DNA of 64,000 nt. Origin: an uncultured Clostridia bacterium. Its GTDB lineage: Bacteria; Bacillota; Clostridia; Christensenellales; UBA1242. A program made the position numbers and the translations under genes. Under the pieces are notes generated by a model. It saw only the letters and a list, made by a program, of their open reading frames with translations. It ran no database searches and was not told the origin of the DNA. The stretch is taken from NCBI GenBank assembly GCA_944350275.1, contig CALVOK010000011.1, forward strand, positions 25,698 through 89,697, read 5' to 3'. This document shows, in pieces, positions 5,288 through 59,342 of this stretch (positions are counted from its first letter, which is position 1; each line of letters opens with the position of its first letter).

Positions 5288-7672
5288 ATGATATTTAAAA
5301 AATTTTTTAACAAAGACGCCGATAAAGTAAAGCATTTTGCTCAACAATTCAATTTGTCAGAAAGAGTTACAGAACTATTATTATCAAGGGGATTAAACAC
5401 AAGTGAAGATATTGAAGAATTTTTGAACCCTAAGAAATTACACAATCCTTTTCTTTTAAAGGATATGCAAAAACTTGTAGATAGAGTGAAACTTGCTAAA
5501 GAATTAAAGGACAAAGTGCTAATCTTTGGTGATTATGATGTGGATGGTGTTAGCGCGACATCTATAATGCTTAAAACATTAAAGTTATATGGAATAAATG
5601 CTGATTATTACCTGCCCAATAGATATATTGATGGCTATGGTTTAACAAATCAAGTTATTGATAAGATAGCCAGCACTTATTCGCCAAATCTTATTATCAC
5701 AGTCGACTGTGGTATTTCTTGCTATAAAGAAGTTGAATATGCAAAAAATATTGGTATAGAAATATGTGTTACAGACCATCACGAAATACCTGAGGTAATT
5801 CCCGATACGATAGTTGTAAACGCAAAACTTCCAGGTCAGGAATATCCTTTTAAAGAACTTTGTGGTACAGGTGTTGCTTTTAAGTTTGCTCAGGCATTAT
5901 TAGGCGAAAAAGAGGCAAGGCAATTTCTTCCTGAAACTGCAATAGCAACTATTGTGGATATTGTTCCACTTTTAAATGAAAATAGGACAATAGTCGCTTT
6001 GGGACTAAAACTTTGCGAAAAATATTTACCAATTGGACTTAAAATGATGTTTAAAGAATATGGCATAGCACTAACAAATCCAAATGCGACTGATATCTCT
6101 TTTAAGATTGGGCCTAAACTGAATGCATCAGGGCGGATGGGTGATGCCAGTGATTCACTTAAGATATATTTCGAGACCGACCCTGTGCAAGTTAAAAAGG
6201 ACCTTGAAAAAATTAAACAGCATAATACAAAGAGACAGGAAATTTGCAATAAAATTTATGATGATTGCGAAAAGGCTCTTGAAAAAGTTGATATGAGAGG
6301 TCAACGTGTTATCACTCTTGCATCAAAAGCATGGGACAAAGGTGTACTGGGTATAGTTTGCTCGCGACTTGTTGAAAAATACCATAAACCTACCTTTTTA
6401 TTCGCTCAAGAGGGAGATTTGCTGTGTGGTTCAGGGCGAAGCATTACTGATATCAATATTCATGAACTTTTGTCCTCGCTAAAAGACATTTTGGAGACTT
6501 TTGGTGGACATTCTATGGCGGCAGGACTTACCCTTAAACGAAAAAACTATGAATTGTTCACTCAAAAAATTAACTCCTTCGCACTTGGCAATATAAATGA
6601 TGAGGTCTACATACCTATCAAGTATTATGACCAAGATATAACTGATGAGGAAGTAACTCCTGAATTTTTAAAAGAACTTGAAAAACTTGAACCTTATGGT
6701 TGTGATAATCCAAGACCCAAATTTCGAATTACCGCACAAGAAATTGACCTTCAACCAATGAAAAAATATCCTCAACATTCAAATATAAAGATAGGCAACC
6801 TTAATCTTACCTACTTTAATTTTACAAACAATATAGTCAAAATAAAATTTTCACGAAAAAAATCTTTTATATTTGAATTTCAACCTCTTTCGAATAAAGG
6901 GATTGTAGATGAGTTTGATGGTGGAAGTTTTATAGTCGAGGATTCATATAAAAAACTTAATTCCATTGAATTAAATCAGTTGGTTATCAAAGGCGACGGC
7001 AATGCAAAATTTAAACTCTATCCAAAAGAGCAACTCTTATCCTTTATTGGTGGAACGACGACATCAGTTTTTGGAACTTGCTTTGTGACTTATTCTTGCT
7101 TTGACTATGTAGAGTTTAATAAAAATTACAACACCCAGGGGATATATCAGTTTGGTATATATGAGGATAAGGAGATAGGTTATAATTCTCTTTTGCTATC
7201 GCCAAAAGGAATAGGTTGGGCAAAAAATTTCAATAAGATTATTTTCTTGTCACCTGTGATTGATAAGAATTTTATATCAGCATTAAATAAAGTTACAGAT
7301 GCTGAAATATACATTCCTGTAGAAGAACTAGGTAATCCACGGAAATTTGCTGGCATTGACCTTGATAGAAAGACTTTCGGCAGTGTGTATAAAGCAATTT
7401 CAAATAAGGCAAACAAAGAAGTTTACAATGTGTTTGACTTATACGACAGGTGTGACTTTGGCGACAAAGTATCATTCAGCACGTTTTATTGTGCCTTACT
7501 TGTCTTTAATGAACTTAAGATAATTGATATAGAAAGTGACAAACAGATAAAATTAAAAATCAATAAGTCTATAAAAAGTGATTTGATGAAGTCTAAAATA
7601 TATAATAATTTACTGCTTTTAAAAAATACTTTTAAAGGAGAAATTGATAATGCAAGACGAAACATCTATTAG
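5288..7672 (+). CDS. recJ: Single-stranded-DNA-specific exonuclease RecJ
   Basis: DHH motifs (IFGDYDVDGVSA, ITVDCG, VTDHH) and DHHA1 (GGHSMAAG). The ATG at 5288 is preferred over the track start. Confidence 0.88.
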   Translation: MIFKKFFNKDADKVKHFAQQFNLSERVTELLLSRGLNTSEDIEEFLNPKKLHNPFLLKDMQKLVDRVKLAKELKDKVLIFGDYDVDGVSATSIMLKTLKLYGINADYYLPNRYIDGYGLTNQVIDKIASTYSPNLIITVDCGISCYKEVEYAKNIGIEICVTDHHEIPEVIPDTIVVNAKLPGQEYPFKELCGTGVAFKFAQALLGEKEARQFLPETAIATIVDIVPLLNENRTIVALGLKLCEKYLPIGLKMMFKEYGIALTNPNATDISFKIGPKLNASGRMGDASDSLKIYFETDPVQVKKDLEKIKQHNTKRQEICNKIYDDCEKALEKVDMRGQRVITLASKAWDKGVLGIVCSRLVEKYHKPTFLFAQEGDLLCGSGRSITDINIHELLSSLKDILETFGGHSMAAGLTLKRKNYELFTQKINSFALGNINDEVYIPIKYYDQDITDEEVTPEFLKELEKLEPYGCDNPRPKFRITAQEIDLQPMKKYPQHSNIKIGNLNLTYFNFTNNIVKIKFSRKKSFIFEFQPLSNKGIVDEFDGGSFIVEDSYKKLNSIELNQLVIKGDGNAKFKLYPKEQLLSFIGGTTTSVFGTCFVTYSCFDYVEFNKNYNTQGIYQFGIYEDKEIGYNSLLLSPKGIGWAKNFNKIIFLSPVIDKNFISALNKVTDAEIYIPVEELGNPRKFAGIDLDRKTFGSVYKAISNKANKEVYNVFDLYDRCDFGDKVSFSTFYCALLVFNELKIIDIESDKQIKLKINKSIKSDLMKSKIYNNLLLLKNTFKGEIDNARRNIY

Positions 7673-13744: not shown

Positions 13745-13790
13745 GGACTATTATGTTATGAAACTATAACAAAAACATAATAGTCTTTTT
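13745..13790. terminator. Bidirectional intrinsic terminator between convergent pnp and the cysteine desulfurase gene
   Basis: GGACTATTATGTT-16 nt-AACATAATAGTCT stem, with an A-run before and a T-run after. The arms share ACTATTATG/CATAATAGT with the dispersed palindrome. Confidence 0.65.
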
Positions 13791-17461: not shown

Positions 17462-17571
17462 GTACAATAATAACAATTTTATAAAAGAATAAAAATCTTG
17501 AATTAAGTAAAAGTAAGGAACTGTTTTAGTTGTTTGACGTAAATACAAAAGACAATGTAAAAGAGAAAAAT

Positions 17572-18201
17572 ATGGACTTAAATGAATTTTATAGTGAATT
17601 GGATAATCTATTCCCTGAGCCTAAATGTGAACTAGAGTATAAAAGCACATATCAGTTACTGGTTGCCGTTATACTTTCTGCACAGTGTACAGATAGAAGA
17701 GTGAATATTGTGACAAAAGAGTTGTTTAAAGAGTATGATACACCAGAAAAAATGCTTAAATTGTCGCAAAGTGAACTTGAAAATAAAATACATTCAGTTG
17801 GATTTTATCACAACAAAGCAAAAAATATACTTTCTATGAGCAGAGACCTTATTGAAAAATTTAATGGAGAAGTGCCAAAGGATATTGAAAAATTACAAAC
17901 TCTTGCGGGAGTGGGACGTAAAACTGCAAATGTTGTTTTTTCTGAGGCATTTAAAGGAGATGCCATTGCAGTTGATACTCATGTACTGCGTGTTTCAAAT
18001 AGGTTAGGATTTGTAAAAACAGATAATCCATATAAATGCGAACTTGCTTTAATGAATCTTTTTGATAAGAGTAGGTGGGGAAAACTTCATCTTCAACTTG
18101 TTCATTTTGGAAGGTATATTTGCAAGGCAGTAAAACCTAAATGCTCTGAGTGTCCATTCACTAATAATTGCATCTATTATGCATTGCATAATACTAAATA
18201 A
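17572..18201 (+). CDS. nth: Endonuclease III
   Basis: HhH-GPD region (LAGVGRKTANVV, DTHV) and C-terminal 4Fe-4S cluster C..(6)..C..C..(5)..C. ATG at 17572 preferred. Confidence 0.88.
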   Translation: MDLNEFYSELDNLFPEPKCELEYKSTYQLLVAVILSAQCTDRRVNIVTKELFKEYDTPEKMLKLSQSELENKIHSVGFYHNKAKNILSMSRDLIEKFNGEVPKDIEKLQTLAGVGRKTANVVFSEAFKGDAIAVDTHVLRVSNRLGFVKTDNPYKCELALMNLFDKSRWGKLHLQLVHFGRYICKAVKPKCSECPFTNNCIYYALHNTK

Positions 18202-18237
18202 TGCATTATGTATGCAGGACATAATACTATATATTGT
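18174..18237 (-). repeat. Full 64-bp copy of the dispersed composite repeat (reverse orientation)
   Basis: The reverse complement aligns gap-free to 59279-59342 with 53/64 identities by hand alignment. The palindromic end lies within the last codons of nth. Confidence 0.8.
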
Positions 18238-29194: not shown

Positions 29195-29276
29195 GCGGGC
29201 GTGGCGGAATGGCAGACGCGCTTGTTTAAGGGGCAAGTGGGAAACCGTGTGGGTTCGACTCCCACCGCCCGCACCA
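29195..29276 (+). tRNA. tRNA-Leu (type II, long variable arm), anticodon reads AAG, encoded CCA
   Basis: Acceptor stem GCGGGCG/CGCCCGC and D arm GCG-GAATGGCAGA-CGC. Anticodon stem CTTGT/GCAAG with loop TTAAGGG (anticodon at 29228-29230). Variable arm TGGGAAACCGTG and T arm GTGGG-TTCGACT-CCCAC. Confidence 0.9.
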
Positions 29277-33951: not shown

Positions 33952-34842
33952 TTAATCATCTATAAGTTTCTCAAAATCTTTTGGAAAGGGTACTGAAAAA
34001 GTTAGTGTCTCTTGCTTAAAAGGATGATAAAATGAAACATCTTTACAAATAAGGGCAGTGTGGTTAATCGTTTGAGTTTTATTTCCATAAAGTTCATCGC
34101 CAAGCAGGGCATGTCCTATACTTGAAAGATGCACTCTTATTTGATGAGTTCTGCCATGGATAAGGTTTACACTTATAAGAGTAAACTTTTTTATTTGATT
34201 ATCTTCCTTTATCTCGCAAATTTTAATAGGACGTACAAAGGTCTTTGCATCTTTGCCGTCAAATGCTATCTCTCTTTTCTTATTATTGATTTTATCCTTA
34301 GAAGTGGTTTTTATCTTTTTATCAATTACTAAATCTCTATCTATAACGCCCTCGCATATGGCATAATAGGTCTTATTTATATCCTTAATTTCTTTTTGTG
34401 AAATGCTATCTTTTGCAACAATCACAATACCTGATGTGTCTTTATCTATTCTGTTTATAATTCTCAAAGTGAAGTTTGGGTCTTTGTCTTTCATATAAAA
34501 ACATATTCCGCCTGCAAGGTTAAAGGAATAATGCGATTTGCTAGGCATACTAGCAAGTCCTGCTGGTTTATTGATTAGTAAGTAGTATTCATCTTCATAT
34601 ACTATATCTAGTGGTAGTATGCATTGCATAATAGTAGTTTTGTTGTTAGGATTTGAATTGATGGCAAGGTCATCACCAATAGAAAGAGAATGGTTGATTG
34701 TAACATCATTGCCGTTTACTTTGATATATCCCATATGTTTTCTTAGATTTGTAATAAAGTTTTCTGAAAAATCGTTGTCTTTCAAGAAAAAGTAAATGGT
34801 AGAATAGTTTTTTGTTATTTGATAGTGCTGATATTTTATCAT
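33952..34842 (-). CDS. RluA-family pseudouridine synthase
   Basis: S4-like N-terminus, catalytic Asp region RIDKDTSGIVIVAK, and HGRTHQIRVHL. Confidence 0.87.
   Translation of the reverse strand: MIKYQHYQITKNYSTIYFFLKDNDFSENFITNLRKHMGYIKVNGNDVTINHSLSIGDDLAINSNPNNKTTIMQCILPLDIVYEDEYYLLINKPAGLASMPSKSHYSFNLAGGICFYMKDKDPNFTLRIINRIDKDTSGIVIVAKDSISQKEIKDINKTYYAICEGVIDRDLVIDKKIKTTSKDKINNKKREIAFDGKDAKTFVRPIKICEIKEDNQIKKFTLISVNLIHGRTHQIRVHLSSIGHALLGDELYGNKTQTINHTALICKDVSFYHPFKQETLTFSVPFPKDFEKLIDD
34615..34636. repeat. Palindromic core copy (TAGTATGCATTGCATAATAGTA) inside the rluA-family CDS
   Basis: Matches the TATGCATTGCATAATAG core of the dispersed palindrome. It encodes ...TTIMQCILP... on the minus strand. 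Confidence 0.7.
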
Positions 34843-41512: not shown

Positions 41513-41678
41513 TTGTATTTTGGAAGGAATAATAATTAAGTTTAAAATGAACACTATCATTTTAAAATTTACCACAATAGAGTATGCATAATGCTTTATA
41601 TTTATAAAATCAACATTTATAAATTTTCATATTATGCAATATATATCAAAAATTCATGCATAAATATACAAAAATCCC

Positions 41679-41754
41679 TTGCATAATTATAAAAAATGTT
41701 GTATAATAATCAAAAATGCATGAATAAAGATAAATTCATAATTATGCATAAATG
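41679..41754 (+). promoter_or_regulatory. argR promoter (TTGCAT-N17-TATAAT) with overlapping palindromic operator-like sequences
   Basis: -35 at 41679-41684 and -10 at 41702-41707. Downstream lie TGAATAAAGATAAATTCA (41721-41738) and TTCATAATTATGCA (41735-41748), the latter of ARG-box type TGNAT-W4-ATNCA. Confidence 0.4.
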
Positions 41755-41800
41755 CTATAAGCCTTTATTTTAAAGGGATTTAGCGATTTAAGGAGAAAAC

Positions 41801-45453: not shown

Positions 45454-46488
45454 TTAAGAATTTATTTTTATTATTTCAGCAACATTCTTTCTCATATCTT
45501 CGCTAATTGCTGCATAGTGCTTTTTCGTTGTATTTACATCTTTATGACCAAGTACATCTGCAACAATATAAATATCCCTAGTTTCTTTATACAAATTTGT
45601 ACCAAAAGTACTTCGCAATTTATGAGGAGAAATTTTCTTCAGTGGCGAGGCAATCTGTGCATATTTTTTTACCAAGTTCTCAACTGCTCTAATAGAAATT
45701 CTCTTGCTTTTCAAGGAGATAAACATTGCGTTTTCATCTTCAGGTAAACCTAATGTGGCACGTTTTTCAAGCCATGTTTTTAGAGCGAGGGCGACTTCTT
45801 TAGAAAAATAAAGGGTAGTTTGATTTCCGCCTTTACGAGTGACTAAAAAAGCATTTTGACTAAAATCAAAACTTTCAATGTTGAGTCCAACAAGTTCTGA
45901 TATACGTATGCCTGTTCCTAAAAAAAGTGTTACAATAGCATTATCTCTTTCAAACGTTTTTTTACTATATTCTTGTTGACGTTTAGTTAATTGTATTGGG
46001 TTTTCTATTGTTTCCATCAATTTTTTAACTTCGTTTTTTTCAAGTCTTATAATTTCTTTATTATGTAGTTTTGGAGTATCAATTTTACTTGCAACATTGG
46101 ATTCAATTAAATCATGATTAAATAAATATTTAAAGAAACTTCGCAGTGATGCCAATTTCCTTGCTTTACCTTTTTCATCATTTTTGTATTGTTTGCCATC
46201 CAATTCATAGTAAGAAAGGTAGGAAAGATATTGCTCCAAATTTCTTGATTTTAACTTATTAAGGTCATCCAAAGTTATGTCGATTTCTTTCTTTTTAAAC
46301 ACATAATTACCTAGATAATTAAAGAAAATATACAGATCCATTGAATAGTTGTACCTAGTAAGCGAAGAGGTGTTATTTTCAATACCTATAAAATAGTCAA
46401 GACAATAATCAGGGAGTCTTTCAGTGTACTTCGACATTTTTAGTCTGTTTTCTAAATCTCGTTGTTCATAAAAACTTAATTTTTTCAT
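45454..46488 (-). CDS. Tyrosine recombinase, XerS-like architecture
   Basis: Catalytic contexts GTGIRISEL (Arg), HKLRSTFGT (H-x-x-R) and LGHKDVNTTKKHY (His/Tyr). VTRKGG motif and N-terminal LPDYCLDYF...YNYSMDLYIFFNYL resemble XerS-type rather than classical XerC/D N-termini. Confidence 0.8.
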   Translation of the reverse strand: MKKLSFYEQRDLENRLKMSKYTERLPDYCLDYFIGIENNTSSLTRYNYSMDLYIFFNYLGNYVFKKKEIDITLDDLNKLKSRNLEQYLSYLSYYELDGKQYKNDEKGKARKLASLRSFFKYLFNHDLIESNVASKIDTPKLHNKEIIRLEKNEVKKLMETIENPIQLTKRQQEYSKKTFERDNAIVTLFLGTGIRISELVGLNIESFDFSQNAFLVTRKGGNQTTLYFSKEVALALKTWLEKRATLGLPEDENAMFISLKSKRISIRAVENLVKKYAQIASPLKKISPHKLRSTFGTNLYKETRDIYIVADVLGHKDVNTTKKHYAAISEDMRKNVAEIIKINS

Positions 46489-46523: not shown

Positions 46524-46783
46524 CAAAATTAATCAACTATGCATAAAATTTTTTATAATATCTTATATATGGAGTAATATGCATAGAATACATACTACAT
46601 ACAGTATATCAGATAAAATTCGTTTTAGTTGATGAGAATATGAAGGGTGAAAAATATCAGTGTTAATACAGTTTAGAGAAATTTATTATTAAGAATTTGT
46701 ATAAATCTTTTATATTTATTTGACTATTCTTTGCATTATAAAGTATAATAAAGGTATTATTTAATATAGGAGATTTAGAACAA

Positions 46784-48084: not shown

Positions 48085-49056
48085 ATGTCAAATGTAAATA
48101 TTTCAAAGGATATTATAAACAACATTGCAAACCAAGAAAACAAAAAATTTGTTAAAAATATTAACAAATTAATAATGCAATTGGTTAATGATTCAATGCA
48201 AGATTTATCTAATAGCATATCGTTTATTTCGGCCAAAAATGTTGTTTTACAGCCTATCAATGAATTAGTCAGTGGTGCGTTTATTGATGCATCAAATTTT
48301 GTCTATTTGTTGGGCATAGAAAATATTCAATTAGAATTAAATACTGCCAAAAAGATGTCGTTTTTGCGAAATTTAAAAGAGAGATTTAAATATGCTTGGC
48401 AAAATAGAAAGTTGATTTATAAGCGAAGGAAAAAACATCGTAAAAAATCAAAAAAGGAATTGGAGAAGATAGAAGATAAAAAAGAAGTAGATTTTAATAA
48501 TTATACAATATATAGCCTTGCTGAAGATTTACAAAATTCTATTGTTAATTACTTATCGGAAACAAGTATGGTTTACTTGAATGGTAATCTGTTGCAAATT
48601 ATTGGTAAAGATGATTTTGGCTCAAACACAAAGATATTTATATATGTGGTAAGTTATGATGGAACAAATTATAAATATTATGCTGGAAAGAAAAAAGGAT
48701 ATATTAATATAAATGTCAATGGCCGTGTAGATAAATTGTCATCAAAAATGCAGACAGCAGGTGAAAATTTTATAAAAATTTTGAAAATTTTGAATACTCT
48801 TTACTATAATACAAACGGATATATGTGTAATCAAATCTTTATGGAGAGCATTTTATGTTCCGTGCCAGAAGACTTATTTTTTGGTTTAGATATTTATAAT
48901 GTTTTTGTTAAAATTATAAATTATTTATCTATAACATCATTTAAAAATATTAAATCAATAAACAACTATGATTTAACAATATTTAATGATGTAGTATGTG
49001 GGAATTGCATGCTTGGATTTAATAAAATGATGAATAAAATTATAACAAAAAATTAG
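48085..49056 (+). CDS. Hypothetical protein (possibly a degenerate nucleotidyltransferase-fold protein)
   Basis: FIKILKILNTLYYNTNGYMCNQIFMESIL resembles the lRllKhW...S.hlE helix pair of OAS/CD-NTase-like NTases. No GS...DxD catalytic motif is evident. Lys-rich central linker. Confidence 0.45.
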   Translation: MSNVNISKDIINNIANQENKKFVKNINKLIMQLVNDSMQDLSNSISFISAKNVVLQPINELVSGAFIDASNFVYLLGIENIQLELNTAKKMSFLRNLKERFKYAWQNRKLIYKRRKKHRKKSKKELEKIEDKKEVDFNNYTIYSLAEDLQNSIVNYLSETSMVYLNGNLLQIIGKDDFGSNTKIFIYVVSYDGTNYKYYAGKKKGYININVNGRVDKLSSKMQTAGENFIKILKILNTLYYNTNGYMCNQIFMESILCSVPEDLFFGLDIYNVFVKIINYLSITSFKNIKSINNYDLTIFNDVVCGNCMLGFNKMMNKIITKN

Positions 49057-49915: not shown

Positions 49916-51265
49916 ACATTTTTACCAAATGTACTTTATAATAAAATTATGTGATGATAAAATTTAAACAAGTCAAGTTTTAATTTTTTCTAAGCGCAAA
50001 ATACACACTAAATTGTGTGTCATCCACATAGTATGTAAAACCAATCAGGCTTACTTTTGCAAGCAAGTTGGACTTTCGATAATATAAAATACAGCCAATA
50101 GGAAAATCCTATAAATTTGCTTGCTAACACGAACTTAATATGAATTTATATAATAATACGACACGAATGTCGCAGATAAAAATCTATGATTGTAAAAGAA
50201 TTTGTTATACAAAAGATATACAGAATAAACTGAGGTATCTAAATAAAAACTGTAAAAATATGCATTTAATTGTATAGTTTGCAGACAATATTACATTATA
50301 TATTTATAGCAAATCAGTTTAATTTTCGACAATGCAAAACTAAGAATAAAGCCACGGATAAAAGTTAGCAAAATGTAAAAGTAAAAACAAAATTACTTTA
50401 TAGTAGTAATCTACAATTTTTAATATAGTTAACAAAAGCCATATTTTAATATAGTTATAAAAAAATAACATAATAGATTATTTTTTCATGCTATTATGCG
50501 TGTATCTATTCGTAAAACTTGTGTTTTGCGAATAGATATGAATGTGTTGACTTTTAAATTTCTGTTTACTTTTTATTTCCCTAATAAAATTTTAACACAT
50601 AAAATTCATCATAAATAAACAAATACTAGACCACTTTACACTAATCCCGTAGGTTTAATACAACCCTTTGTTATCAGAACAAGAAAACAAAATTTTCTTG
50701 TGAATAGCACATGTGGAAAATATAAATCATAAAACAATTAAAGTGAAAACTTAAAATTTACATACTTTAAACAATTTAAATTCATTAAATTTTATTACTC
50801 CCCTATAAAAATTTACACTCTCCTTTCAATTTGTTTTAAAATGTCATTAGCGAAAGTTTTTAAACCTAATCTTCTTATTATGTTAAGTCGTCTATGTTTA
50901 TATGATTCACTTATGTTTTCCTTTCGACAAATTTTACAAAAAGTATACATATTTTCGTGACATCTCTTATATGGCTAAAGTAATTATTTGTGTTCTTCTA
51001 TACCCATCGTCATAAACTAATATTAGACATAAATTATTTTATAATTTGTTTTCTTTATCAATCTTTTATCCTCTAGCCAACACATTTTTTGTTTTGTTTG
51101 GCTTGTATAGTAAAATAGTCTTATTTGTCATACATGTTTTATGCAGCCCTAGCACTACACTTCAAAAGAGTTTATTTCCCTTTTTATACATAAAAAATCA
51201 TGCATACTCTATTTGTAAATGTACACTATTTTCGTTTGAGTTATAATTATAGTTTTTATATTACT

Positions 51266-51868
51266 TTATAGAATTTTGCTTGTTAGAAGAAAACTGAACT
51301 TTTTTAGTTCTTCTTTTATTTCTTTATAGTTGGGTATATATTGCCCTACTAATGACCAAAAATATTTCGAGTGATTAAATTCTTGACTGTGACATAATTC
51401 GTGAATTATAATGTATACAATTAGTTCTTTCGGTAATATAACAATTTTCCAATTTAGTTTCATTCTTTTGTTGCTGTCAAGACTCCCCCATACTCTCTTA
51501 GAATTCACTATTGATAAAGACGTATAATATAAATTGCATCTTATTGATAATTCATGTACCATTGGTTTAATATAATTTAAAAATGCATTTCTATAAAATG
51601 TATCCTTCTTGATGTTGCCAAAAGGCATAGCATTGTTAAAAATATAACCATAATTTTCAAAATCATAGGTTGATTTTACCTTGTTCATATTATCTATTTT
51701 TTCGATATGTTTTTCTATCCATTTTCTTTTTGCTTTGATAAAATCTATTATTTTTTCGTTAGATAAAGACTTAGGAGCATAAAGACTTATCTCTCCATTA
51801 TTAGATATTTTTAATCTTATATTTTTGTATTTACCTCTTATAATATCAATATGATGTTTATTATCCAT
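51266..51868 (-). CDS. YgjP-like (DUF45/M48-related) zinc metallohydrolase
   Basis: HELCHSQEFNHSKYFW motif near the C-terminus and a typical YgjP N-terminus (IRLKISNNGEISLYAP). The ATG at 51868 lies 6 nt after a TATAAT. Confidence 0.75.
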   Translation of the reverse strand: MDNKHHIDIIRGKYKNIRLKISNNGEISLYAPKSLSNEKIIDFIKAKRKWIEKHIEKIDNMNKVKSTYDFENYGYIFNNAMPFGNIKKDTFYRNAFLNYIKPMVHELSIRCNLYYTSLSIVNSKRVWGSLDSNKRMKLNWKIVILPKELIVYIIIHELCHSQEFNHSKYFWSLVGQYIPNYKEIKEELKKFSFLLTSKIL

Positions 51869-51920
51869 TAGAATATTATACATAAAATTTAAAAATTTTA
51901 CAAAGAAATTGTATATTTTT

Positions 51921-51949
51921 TTAACTATTATGCATTGCATAATAGTTAA
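51921..51949. repeat. Perfect 29-bp palindrome TTAACTATTATGCA-T-TGCATAATAGTTAA between divergent promoters
   Basis: The 14-nt left arm is the exact reverse complement of the 14-nt right arm around T51935. Same core as the other dispersed copies. Confidence 0.9.
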
Positions 51950-52027
51950 AAATGTTTTTTAAACAAATTAATTAAAAATTGTTGACTAATTTTAAATATT
52001 AGTTTATAATTCTATTAGAGGTTTAAT

Positions 52028-53887
52028 ATGGATTTATATGCAAAAGGACAACTTTCATTTTTAATTTTAAATTGCCTATTAGAACGTGATTTTTATGGAC
52101 TTGATTTAATTACAGAAATATATAACAAATCTAATGGAAGAATTGAACTGAAAAAACCAAGTGTTTATTCCAACCTCACTAGAATGGAAAAACAAGGTTA
52201 TGTGTCTTCATATATGCGGAGTAGCGATTTAGGACCAAATAGAAAATATTATTCTATAACTGAACGAGGTCGTATATTTTATCAAGATTTAAAAAATTAT
52301 TTTGATAGAAATAATATTGACGTCTTTAGAGATTTTAAAGATTTTGAGGCTACAACTAATGCTACAGTTAACGTTAGAGAATCAAATGCAAGTTATAATA
52401 ATGTAAATTATTTTTCTTTAAATAAAACTCAATCATCAAGTCAAAAAGATATTTCGAATATGCAAAATGAAAATATTGAAGAAAATGAAACTAGTGATGA
52501 TGACTATTTTGATTTTTCAAGTTTGGATGAAAAAGATAATACAAATGATATCATCTCTGAGGAAAGTTCAGTCCAGGGAAATAGTGAAAACGAAAATAGC
52601 ATAAAGTCTATACAACAAAATAATGCGGTCCAAACTGATTCATATTCAATCAAGTCACTGTATACTGATACAGATATAAATAGCAATGATAAGAATGAAT
52701 TTGTAAACAAAGTCACTAAAGAAGATAAAGATTTACTGGAAAGTGATGAATCACAAAAAGCAAGTAGTTCTGACACTGTAGTTGTAGATGAAGAGATTAA
52801 ACACGAAGAAGTAAAAAAGGATGATGCCGTATTTTTAAATAGTAAGGATGTAGAAGAATATAATAAACGTCTATATGATATTTCTAAAGATATAAATAAA
52901 TATAAACGTAAAAAGAGTTTTGCGGAGGACCAAATCGCTTTTCAAGTTGAAAACTCCTCACCTATTAGCGAGGCAAATGAACGTACAAAATCAAATATAG
53001 AAGACTTTAAAAATTCTATCCTTGAAAATAAGGGCAAAACTAATGCAACTTATGATTATTCAAAACAGGTTGCATATCGTTTTAATAAAGACAATATGTC
53101 ATATCAAGACATATTGAACACTAATAAAACGCAAAAGAAAGAAGAAATAGTAAAAGACGACGGAAAGTTTATAACAAGCAGAATAGAAGAAACTCAAGTT
53201 GAACACGCAAGAAAAATTGAACCACCTCGATTAAAAATTGTGACTGAAACAAGTAGTCGTGATAACAGTTATAAAATGCCACCACCAAAACGAGACAAGA
53301 CAATTGATCCATCTCACAAGGAAATATTATCAAGACTTTATTCTAAAACTAAGACAGGTAATAATGAAGAAGTAAGAGCGGATGCATTGTATGATTACAA
53401 CGATTTAAGAGACTTCTACAATGATCAAAACATATCTTTTAATGAGTATCAAAAACCTGCTGAAAAAACTGAGCACAACACGAATTTATTATATTTGATA
53501 GTATCTGTTGCTACATTTTTCTTGACGACTATCATTTCTGCTGTGCTATATGGAATATTATCAAGTTCAAGTTTAATAAATAATTCAACAAGTTTCTTAT
53601 ATATTTTGTTGCCTGCCCTGCTATTGATTGATATTGCAATAAAATTTTATAATTATAAAAAATATAAGAGTTGGATGCCAAATCCCCTTCTTCAGCAATG
53701 GAAAATCTGGGGAATAACATTTCTTTTCTCTGCTATTGTTGTAGGTTTAAATTTTATTTGTGGAATGTCCACAACAAACTTTGCTGACTTTGCAACAACA
53801 ACCCTCCTTCCTATATTGTTAGCATTTATTATTCTACCAGGAAGATATTATTTGAATAGATTTCTCTTAATTAAATATTGGAGATAA
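52028..53887 (+). CDS. PadR-family winged-helix regulator fused to a long low-complexity linker and a C-terminal 4-TM domain
   Basis: N-terminus LSFLILNCLLERDFYGLDLITEI...KPSVYSNLTRMEKQGYV...KYYSITERG is PadR-like. It is followed by about 400 aa rich in N/S/D/E/K, then four hydrophobic helices. Promoter TTGACT-N17-TATAAT at 51982-52010. Confidence 0.65.
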   Translation: MDLYAKGQLSFLILNCLLERDFYGLDLITEIYNKSNGRIELKKPSVYSNLTRMEKQGYVSSYMRSSDLGPNRKYYSITERGRIFYQDLKNYFDRNNIDVFRDFKDFEATTNATVNVRESNASYNNVNYFSLNKTQSSSQKDISNMQNENIEENETSDDDYFDFSSLDEKDNTNDIISEESSVQGNSENENSIKSIQQNNAVQTDSYSIKSLYTDTDINSNDKNEFVNKVTKEDKDLLESDESQKASSSDTVVVDEEIKHEEVKKDDAVFLNSKDVEEYNKRLYDISKDINKYKRKKSFAEDQIAFQVENSSPISEANERTKSNIEDFKNSILENKGKTNATYDYSKQVAYRFNKDNMSYQDILNTNKTQKKEEIVKDDGKFITSRIEETQVEHARKIEPPRLKIVTETSSRDNSYKMPPPKRDKTIDPSHKEILSRLYSKTKTGNNEEVRADALYDYNDLRDFYNDQNISFNEYQKPAEKTEHNTNLLYLIVSVATFFLTTIISAVLYGILSSSSLINNSTSFLYILLPALLLIDIAIKFYNYKKYKSWMPNPLLQQWKIWGITFLFSAIVVGLNFICGMSTTNFADFATTTLLPILLAFIILPGRYYLNRFLLIKYWR

Positions 53888-59278: not shown

Positions 59279-59342
59279 ACAACATATAGTATTATGTCTC
59301 GCATACATATATGTATATTTAGTATTATGTATTGCATAATAG
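59279..59342 (+). repeat. Full 64-bp copy of the dispersed composite repeat, filling the queA-tgt junction
   Basis: ACAACATATAGTATTATGTCTCGCATACATATATGTATATTTAGTATTATGTATTGCATAATAG. It ends 1 nt before the queA stop codon (59343-59345). Confidence 0.8.

Follow-up and report, generated by a model that had tools for sequence, protein, structure and literature searches.

A recurrent palindrome next to a gene for a predicted membrane-anchored PadR-like protein, at the probable replication terminus of an uncultured Clostridia bacterium

The window, i.e. the whole 64 000-nucleotide stretch of DNA analysed here, has a G+C content of approximately 32%, encodes YunB and is immediately preceded on its left by the sigF operon and the spoVA genes; its source is a spore-forming member of the Clostridia. 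Two genes diverge near 51.9 kb, one for a YgjP-like metallopeptidase (51266–51867, minus strand; Pfam PF01863), the other for a 619-aa PadR-like protein (52028–53887, plus strand). Reading of the sequence favours ATG 51867 as the ygjP start, rather than the position 51940 given by the ORF finder. The perfect 29-bp palindrome TTAACTATTATGCATTGCATAATAGTTAA reported between these genes by a first-pass annotation was confirmed at 51921–51949 (core 51926–51944), with base pairing that reaches 51918–51952, and is proposed here as a candidate operator of the PadR-like protein. The divergent promoter-like sites described on either side are indeed present on both strands: a sigma-70-type promoter of the padR-like gene, TTGACT-17-TATAAT (51982–52010, plus strand), invariant in five species, and a sigma-70-type promoter-like site of the ygjP-like gene, TTGTAA-17-TATAAT (51875–51903, minus strand). 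The −10 box of the latter ends approximately 8 nt before the likely ATG (51867–51881) and no ribosome-binding site is visible in between; the ygjP mRNA may be leaderless.

When the regions upstream of orthologous padR genes from five species were aligned, a comparison that the first-pass annotation had called for, the palindrome and the padR promoter stood out as conserved islands in a diverged spacer. In these species, the palindrome lies 24–37 nt upstream of the padR −35 box, and this upstream position at a variable distance makes it poorly placed for simple steric repression. Variant palindromes precede padR in loci L174, L180 and L181, and no intact palindrome was found upstream of the padR gene in the distant relative L173.

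The PadR-like protein matches Pfam PF03551 (E 1e-17; 64.3 bits versus a cut-off of 27). Residues 2–94 of its AF2 model form a PadR/LmrR-like winged helix-turn-helix (wHTH) domain, the best Foldseek matches being PadR/LmrR structures with a TM-score (target) of approximately 0.8. This domain is followed by a disordered linker of approximately 400 aa, acidic and polar (net charge −22) with conserved helical segments, and then by four hydrophobic C-terminal helices (residues 485–618) predicted to be transmembrane from hydropathy and the AF2 model. More than 225 unnamed homologues of 520–760 aa were retrieved, and comparison of 11 homologues, the most divergent with 47% overall identity, revealed no change in the recognition helix LKKPSVYSNLTRMEKQ. 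Pfam, NCBIfam and PDB returned nothing matching the C-terminal membrane part, and HAAS, PspC and Toastrack domains were not detected in the protein.

The 19-bp core of the palindrome, TATTATGCAWTGCATAATA, matches the window exactly at 33–51, 18175–18193 and 51926–51944, and with one mismatch at 34615–34633 and 59323–59341. Such a recurrence had been judged not to be chance; five matches in 64 kb versus 0.13 expected, a count reached in none of 100 shuffles, bear this out. The copy at 33–51 lies between spoVAE and yunB, in a leftward-pointing composite element that runs past the window start (orthologous copies in L086 and L117). The copy at 18175–18193, upstream of obg, occupies the last nine codons of the nth-like ORF 17530–18201 and is the first site of another composite (orthologous copies in L022, L104 and L144). 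Within the rluA-family gene, the minus strand of the copy at 34615–34633 encodes I-M-Q-C-I-L immediately before a PLDIVYED motif, and the copy at 59323–59341, located 2 nt past the queA stop codon and upstream of tgt, is the first site of a minus-strand composite (orthologous copies in L049, L162, L163 and L176). Two copies are thus coding, nth being added to the rluA case, and not a single one as first stated. The earlier list of recurrences holds for the core at five places (51926 included) but not for the element downstream of pnp (13745–13785), which consists of the arms CTATTATGT and ACATAATAG around a conserved spacer of approximately 18–20 nt and lacks the core; this element is kept, spacer included, in L022 and L104. 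As to whether the core occurs only as a part of a longer repeat, this is true of the copies at 33, 18175 and 59323, all in composites of approximately 70 nt, but not of those at 51926 and 34615, which lie by themselves. An Rfam search of the window returned one tRNA and nothing else. A tRNA gene at 29195–29273 is followed, up to 29621, by a 71-nt repeat in two copies that are 90% alike, both ending in the tRNA 3′-end-like GGGTAAGGCTCCCACCGCCCGCACCA; these repeats may be remnants of an integration site.

The composite exists in three copies (at the end of nth, after queA and between spoVAE and yunB), to which a fourth, degenerate one is added after sigF, 4.4 kb to the left of the window (in L118). 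It combines the strong palindrome with a second, weaker 19-mer of consensus nnnTATGCAAGACATAATA, which agrees with the core at approximately 13–14 of 18 specified positions. In the alignment, the degenerate second site of the nth composite, ATGTATGCAGGACATAATA (18208–18226, plus strand), has its centre 33 bp from that of the first site; its counterpart at queA/tgt is ATGTATGCGAGACATAATA (59290–59308, minus strand). The centres are separated by 33 bp in six sequences; a 10-bp insertion widens this to 43 bp in three others, which preserves helical phase. A strong and a weak site that face the same side of the helix suggest cooperative binding of two dimers. Further variation follows the symmetry of the motif: extra direct half-sites TGCATAATA come after the palindrome in L002 and L023, and both arms are changed symmetrically to TAGTATG...CATACTA in L181. 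Composite spacing, direct half-sites and symmetric arm change are, as far as sequence can tell, marks of protein binding to duplex DNA. The composites point to the plus direction at sigF and nth and to the minus direction at queA and spoVAE/yunB, and two sites are symmetric; the directions at sigF, nth and queA are consistent with an RTP/Ter-like polarity. Just left of the window start, after spoVAE, L118 also holds a perfect 15-bp inverted repeat (6358–6402), ATAGACATACTACTA...TAGTAGTATGTCTAT, built from GACATACTA, a word common to the weak composite site.

A scan of a genome collection at species level, made with a pattern that allowed slight degeneracy, yielded at least 117 loci, and a complete scan of metagenome contigs with a strict pattern yielded 52. 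The degenerate pattern also caught a separate GntR/FCD-SusC system of Bacteroidota. Among the matches listed, approximately 35 loci come from uncultured Clostridia with 66–83% nucleotide identity to the window, and in these relatives the same 19-mer is found at window-equivalent positions: in the ygjP/padR spacer (L008, L078, L092 and L131), inside rluA (12 distinct sequences), at the end of nth (L022, L104 and L144), just after queA (L049, L162 and L163) and at spoVAE/yunB (L086 and L117). A mobile REP-like element is ruled out by these orthologous copy positions in species 66–83% identical. Nor do the copies resemble REP/BIME or MITE-like repeats: they occupy orthologous positions, two of them are coding, and matches per genome are few among those listed. 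Seven metagenome contigs (L133, L143, L148, L153, L159, L170 and L171), all devoid of similarity to the window, carry an extended palindrome, GACGTATTATGCAWTGCATAATACGTC, in a conserved block of approximately 70 nt.

The rluA copy is the most informative with regard to the level at which selection acts. Across 12 species, its 19 nt are constant save for the central W and one window-specific base. Indeed, the codons ATT, TGC, ATA and ATA show no synonymous change, whereas third positions vary freely in the adjacent PLDIVYED motif, which is conserved at the protein level; conversely, the variable central base of the palindrome switches a codon between His and Gln. Synonymous sites that are fixed, next to a central base that alone is free, indicate selection on DNA rather than on protein. 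The peptide trace IM[HQ]CI[IL] is found in 58 of the 94 top homologues with a locatable motif.

The surroundings of the padR-like gene have the features of a chromosome terminus. GC skew is positive up to approximately 50 kb and negative after, and gene orientations converge near 50 kb. Comparison of L174 (1–22283) with the window (41800–62900) reveals a symmetric inversion centred on the padR/dif-like locus, in which the ruvCAB-queA-tgt and rny-spoIVB-recN-argR blocks are exchanged and the genes are still directed at the locus. The locus near 50 kb is a probable replication terminus. At 1.5 kb from the padR-like gene, a half-site of the motif, GCTATTATGC (50490–50499), is followed after 3 nt by a near-perfect 36-bp palindrome, TATCTATTCGTAAAAC-TTGT-GTTTTGCGAATAGATA (50503–50538), which is kept in eight species with its two arms changing together. 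This palindrome has an 11-6-11 layout, and its arms ATTCGTAAAA resemble difSL TTTCCGAAAA and difH AGTTATGAAAA, as quoted in PMC5357621; we infer that it is a dif-like site. In each of the seven species having that flank, 3 nt separate the half-site, GCTAKTATGC, from the dif-like site (L008 ends at the site), and L173 and L174 possess a second half-site on the other side. Two more conventional candidates were rejected: no match to a Bacillus-type dif was found at up to three mismatches, and scans for XerD-arm sites remained at chance level.

A gene for a Xer-family tyrosine recombinase of 344 aa is located at 45454–46488 (minus strand). Its best NCBIfam match is XerS (178.7 bits versus a cut-off of 267), followed by XerC, XerA and XerD, the protein falling below every NCBIfam cut-off. 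The xer gene adjoins serS also in L173, L174, L180 and L181, and a single copy of the dif-like arm, CAACTATGCATAAAAT (46536–46552), lies beside its start, approximately 4 kb from the dif-like site. This gene and the 36-bp palindrome may constitute a single-recombinase dif module in Clostridia. The order xer, serS, a gene of 320–345 aa, half-site and dif-like site, palindrome, promoter and padR is kept where homologues share only 44–47% identity. In the window, the gene that always stands between serS and the dif-like/padR locus (48085–49056; likewise in L173, L174, L180 and L181) encodes a 323-aa protein that gave no Pfam, NCBIfam or PDB match. Beyond it, a 1.35-kb gap (49916–51265) of approximately 24% G+C has no ORF of at least 80 aa; it holds the dif-like site and is otherwise poorly conserved among relatives.

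The distribution of the sites was surveyed over the window together with 6.4 kb to its left (L118) and 10 kb to its right (L176). Sites occur at −4.4 kb (degenerate), 0.04, 18.2, 34.6, 51.9 and 59.3 kb, with a same-arm variant at 13.7 kb, and no further site was detected beyond 59.3 kb, up to 72.9 kb. Counting GCAWTGC-type or mixed matches and excluding GTAWTAC, at least 22 of the approximately 25 exact matches in low-G+C Clostridia (at least 85%, among the matches listed and in incomplete genomes) fall in the region of approximately 90 kb formed by the window, L118 and L176. Among the matches listed, L001, L002 and L023 are outside this region, and their gene content did not place them. Six genomes have two loci each among the matches listed. 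In five of these, both loci are syntenic with the window or belong to the spoIIIA locus on its immediate right, and in the sixth one of the pair is the unplaced L001. These observations argue for few sites per genome, concentrated in this region. Among the matches listed, nearly all exact sites in the lineage are within approximately 55 kb of the dif-like site.

Outside the lineage, the motif is also found beside PadR genes. Six-frame ORFs of 172 loci pulled by the motif from public collections (approx. 1.1 Mb) were searched with the window's PadR domain: among these loci, 18 of the 19 PadR-family ORFs lie within approximately 600 nt of the motif, and 13 of these 18 belong to unrelated organisms of other phyla (Bacteroidota, Pseudolactococcus, Pirellulales, Nitrospirales and others) in which the PadR gene is small. 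In 9 of the 13, the PadR gene is directly followed by a gene for a large protein (529–634 aa); according to Pfam, five of these large proteins are membrane proteins of the PspC, LiaI-LiaF-TM or Toastrack type, and HAAS is above threshold in two. In these unrelated loci we recognize the HAAS/PadR pair of Ravi et al. 2024 (PMC11237479). Our search of the literature found no published operator for such pairs, which are widespread and for which we put forward TATTATGYAWTRCATAATA as a candidate operator consensus. The idea that a dimeric regulator would use the palindrome as its operator, the adjacent PadR-like protein being the candidate, finds support both in the conserved footprint and in this association of motif and PadR genes. 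However, in 17 Bacteroidota loci among the matches listed, a GTAWTAC variant of the 19-mer accompanies GntR/FCD regulators that neighbour SusC-like genes; the protein family cannot, therefore, be read from palindrome shape alone. No GntR gene was found near the window's sites. The Bacteroidota variant, TATTATGTAWTACATAATA, stands between the gene for the GntR/FCD regulator and that for a SusC-like TonB-dependent receptor of approximately 1100 aa (L004, L009, L011, L012, L015, L020, L026, L033, L066, L084, L087, L094, L100, L106, L113 and others), and looks like a separate, widely conserved operator.

Taken together, these data lead us to favour, with moderate confidence, a reading in which a dimer of the membrane-anchored PadR-like protein binds the palindromes, with autoregulation at 51921–51949. 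The PadR-family wHTH dimer would recognize the 19–29-bp palindrome as double-stranded DNA, its own gene beginning 80 nt downstream of the site. The protein would not act as a soluble repressor: with a wHTH domain joined through a long linker to four predicted transmembrane helices, it would hold bound DNA at the membrane. The copy at 51921–51949, between divergent promoters, would provide autoregulation, and the copies at spoVAE/yunB, the end of nth, rluA and queA would be further sites of the same protein, as would the weaker variants after sigF and after pnp.

Several other origins of the motif were weighed against this reading. The copies could be REP- or MITE-like hairpin repeats that act as RNA or single-stranded DNA (mRNA 3′ stabilizers, terminators or processing sites), with no dedicated duplex-binding regulator. 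Consistent with this, several copies directly follow a stop codon or separate the genes of one operon (2 nt after queA, the end of nth, sigF, spoVAE, and pheT in L010 and L029), and the same arms recur around loops of differing length; spacers of 5, approximately 9 and approximately 20 nt would indeed be better tolerated by a hairpin than by a rigid dimer, which speaks against the PadR reading. The 51921 copy also forms a strong fold (−16.2 kcal/mol, z −6.5) and was marked as terminator-like. Yet it is the only copy so marked, with 3 of its 16 pairs G–C, and it sits between divergent promoters, where no transcript is expected across it. An intrinsic terminator would have a G+C-rich stem and then a run of U where a transcription unit ends, and the copies do not fit this description. 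The remaining copies fold weakly or moderately (z −0.5 and −1.6 for composites; −2.7 kcal/mol for rluA; −9.0 kcal/mol, z −3.0, a moderate value, for 33–51), and the RNA stem proposed for the core by the first-pass annotation appears weak accordingly. Moreover, the sequence itself is invariant across species, with no compensatory variation of the stem, the single-base variant at queA/tgt creates a C·A mismatch on the transcribed strand, and copies are few per genome and at orthologous positions, one of them within a gene. We thus consider a hairpin function improbable. Binding by the local Xer-type recombinase, with PadR uninvolved and in the manner of the XerD-only sites (XDS) at which SMC complexes are unloaded in the Bacillus subtilis terminus, would fit a cluster that surrounds a dif-like site and a Xer-like gene, a motif half-site that abuts the dif-like palindrome in seven species, and TTATG/CATAA ends that resemble the inner ends of classical dif arms. 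XDS are mentioned in PMC11894783. The geometry of the motif is nevertheless unfavourable: its half-sites are tail to tail (TTATG-N5-CATAA), and two 11-bp Xer arms would overlap by approximately 7 bp. The dif-like arms ATTCGTAAAA are unlike the motif, a classical dif was not found by our scans, and the palindrome beside PadR genes in other phyla would be left unexplained, all of which makes Xer binding decidedly improbable.

Two further explanations rest on resemblances in words. Half-site words of the TGCATAA type crowd the interval 41580–41760, upstream of a gene (41801) identified as argR, and one of them, TATTATGCAATATATATCA, is conserved in L173 and L180, as would be expected if the sites were ArgR (AhrC) boxes. 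An ARG box reads TGNAT-WWWW-ATNCA, with half-sites head to head, whereas those of the palindrome are tail to tail around a 1-nt centre; in addition, arginine genes are absent from the flanks of the sites in the window, and the motif occurs in unrelated loci with no accompanying ArgR gene. An ArgR origin is, in our judgement, very improbable. The cluster of ATGCATAA-type words at 41580–41760, which includes TATTATGCAATATATATCA, probably represents ARG boxes with a half-site word in common with the palindrome. Finally, CATAATA is reminiscent of a sigma-G −10 element and GCATA of a sigma-F/G −35 element, and several sites have sigF, spoVA, yunB, spoIIIA or spoVT in their vicinity. That the words would be pieces of sporulation promoters is hardly credible all the same, as no partner element was read at 15–18 nt in any copy, palindromic symmetry is unexpected in such promoters, and copies are also present at rluA, nth, queA and padR.

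Returning to binding by the PadR-like protein, the palindrome would be routine if it were merely an autoregulatory PadR operator. What sets the locus apart is a candidate binder tethered to the membrane, a linkage to the dif-like site and the Xer gene maintained down to 44% identity, sites held at fixed chromosomal positions even where they constrain protein-coding sequence, and the location of most exact sites in sampled relatives within one region, among the matches listed. The membrane-anchored protein, the positional conservation, including within genes, and the cluster at the probable replication terminus go beyond the earlier description of this DNA. Conservation in sequence and in position, the linkage of the motif to PadR genes, the architecture of the protein and the terminus-like setting are observed; binding by the PadR-like protein, autoregulation and any terminus role are what we infer from these sequence data. 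A bolder extension, which we regard as possible but rather unlikely, is that this Clostridia lineage possesses a terminus-specific DNA-binding system of a new type, in which a membrane-anchored PadR-fold protein occupies palindromes over approximately 60 kb around the dif-like site as well as the abutting half-site; such a system could tether or organize the terminus at the membrane or septum. Alternatively, it could influence recombination by Xer, the unloading of SMC or the progress of replication forks in this region.

The canonical PadR operator is ATGT-N8-ACAT. With the autoregulated PadR subfamily 2 (LmrR-like), our locus shares the PadR wHTH and one dimerization helix, a palindrome in the regulator's own upstream region, and ATG(C/T)...(G/A)CAT half-sites. 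However, the core found here, ATGC-N3-GCAT, brings the half-sites 5 bp closer than in the canonical operator and departs from its geometry, the site lies upstream of the promoter instead of over it, the protein has a 400-aa linker and four predicted transmembrane helices, and further conserved sites are found tens of kilobases away, some within genes. BcrR is a membrane-integrated one-component regulator, as are those of the CadC/ToxR type, with which the window's protein would share a cytoplasmic DNA-binding domain tethered to the membrane. By contrast with these regulators, the fold is here PadR rather than OmpR or XRE, the linker is of great length, a sensory domain is not apparent, and dispersed sites are many in place of one target promoter. 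A membrane-tethered DNA-binding domain of the CadC/ToxR type must find its chromosomal sites (PMC6320335; PMC7888679). The two-gene HAAS/PadR-like wHTH envelope-stress systems (PMC11237479) likewise couple a PadR wHTH to the membrane, but the window's protein is a single fused chain and not a standalone PadR paired with a HAAS protein; wHTH and membrane part are joined in one polypeptide, encoded at a chromosome terminus and not in an envelope-stress operon.

The arrangement can also be compared with terminus-specific site families, namely MatP/matS of enterobacteria, RTP/Ter of Bacillus subtilis and XerD/XDS, in which dif is likewise surrounded by a few conserved copies of a short palindrome, some of them in genes. 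The rtp gene adjoins TerI, just as the gene of our candidate binder adjoins one of its own sites, and the composite of a strong and a weak site recalls the A and B sites of RTP Ter elements. The differences lie in the motif itself, in the predicted membrane anchoring of the protein and in a terminus restriction that is deduced from sampling. In particular, the motif differs from the matS sequence bound by MatP, GTGACRNYGTCAC, and the candidate binder is PadR-like. No sequence relation of the PadR-like protein to MatP, RTP or Tus was seen, and a relationship to RTP was discarded, RTP being absent even from the weak Pfam matches of the wHTH domain. To our knowledge, MatP is confined to enterobacteria and relatives, and we know of no terminus organizer in Clostridia, for which the locus offers a concrete protein and a concrete site as candidates. 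If true, such a terminus system would match MatP/matS, RTP/Ter or XerD/XDS in function while drawing on a protein family unrelated to theirs.
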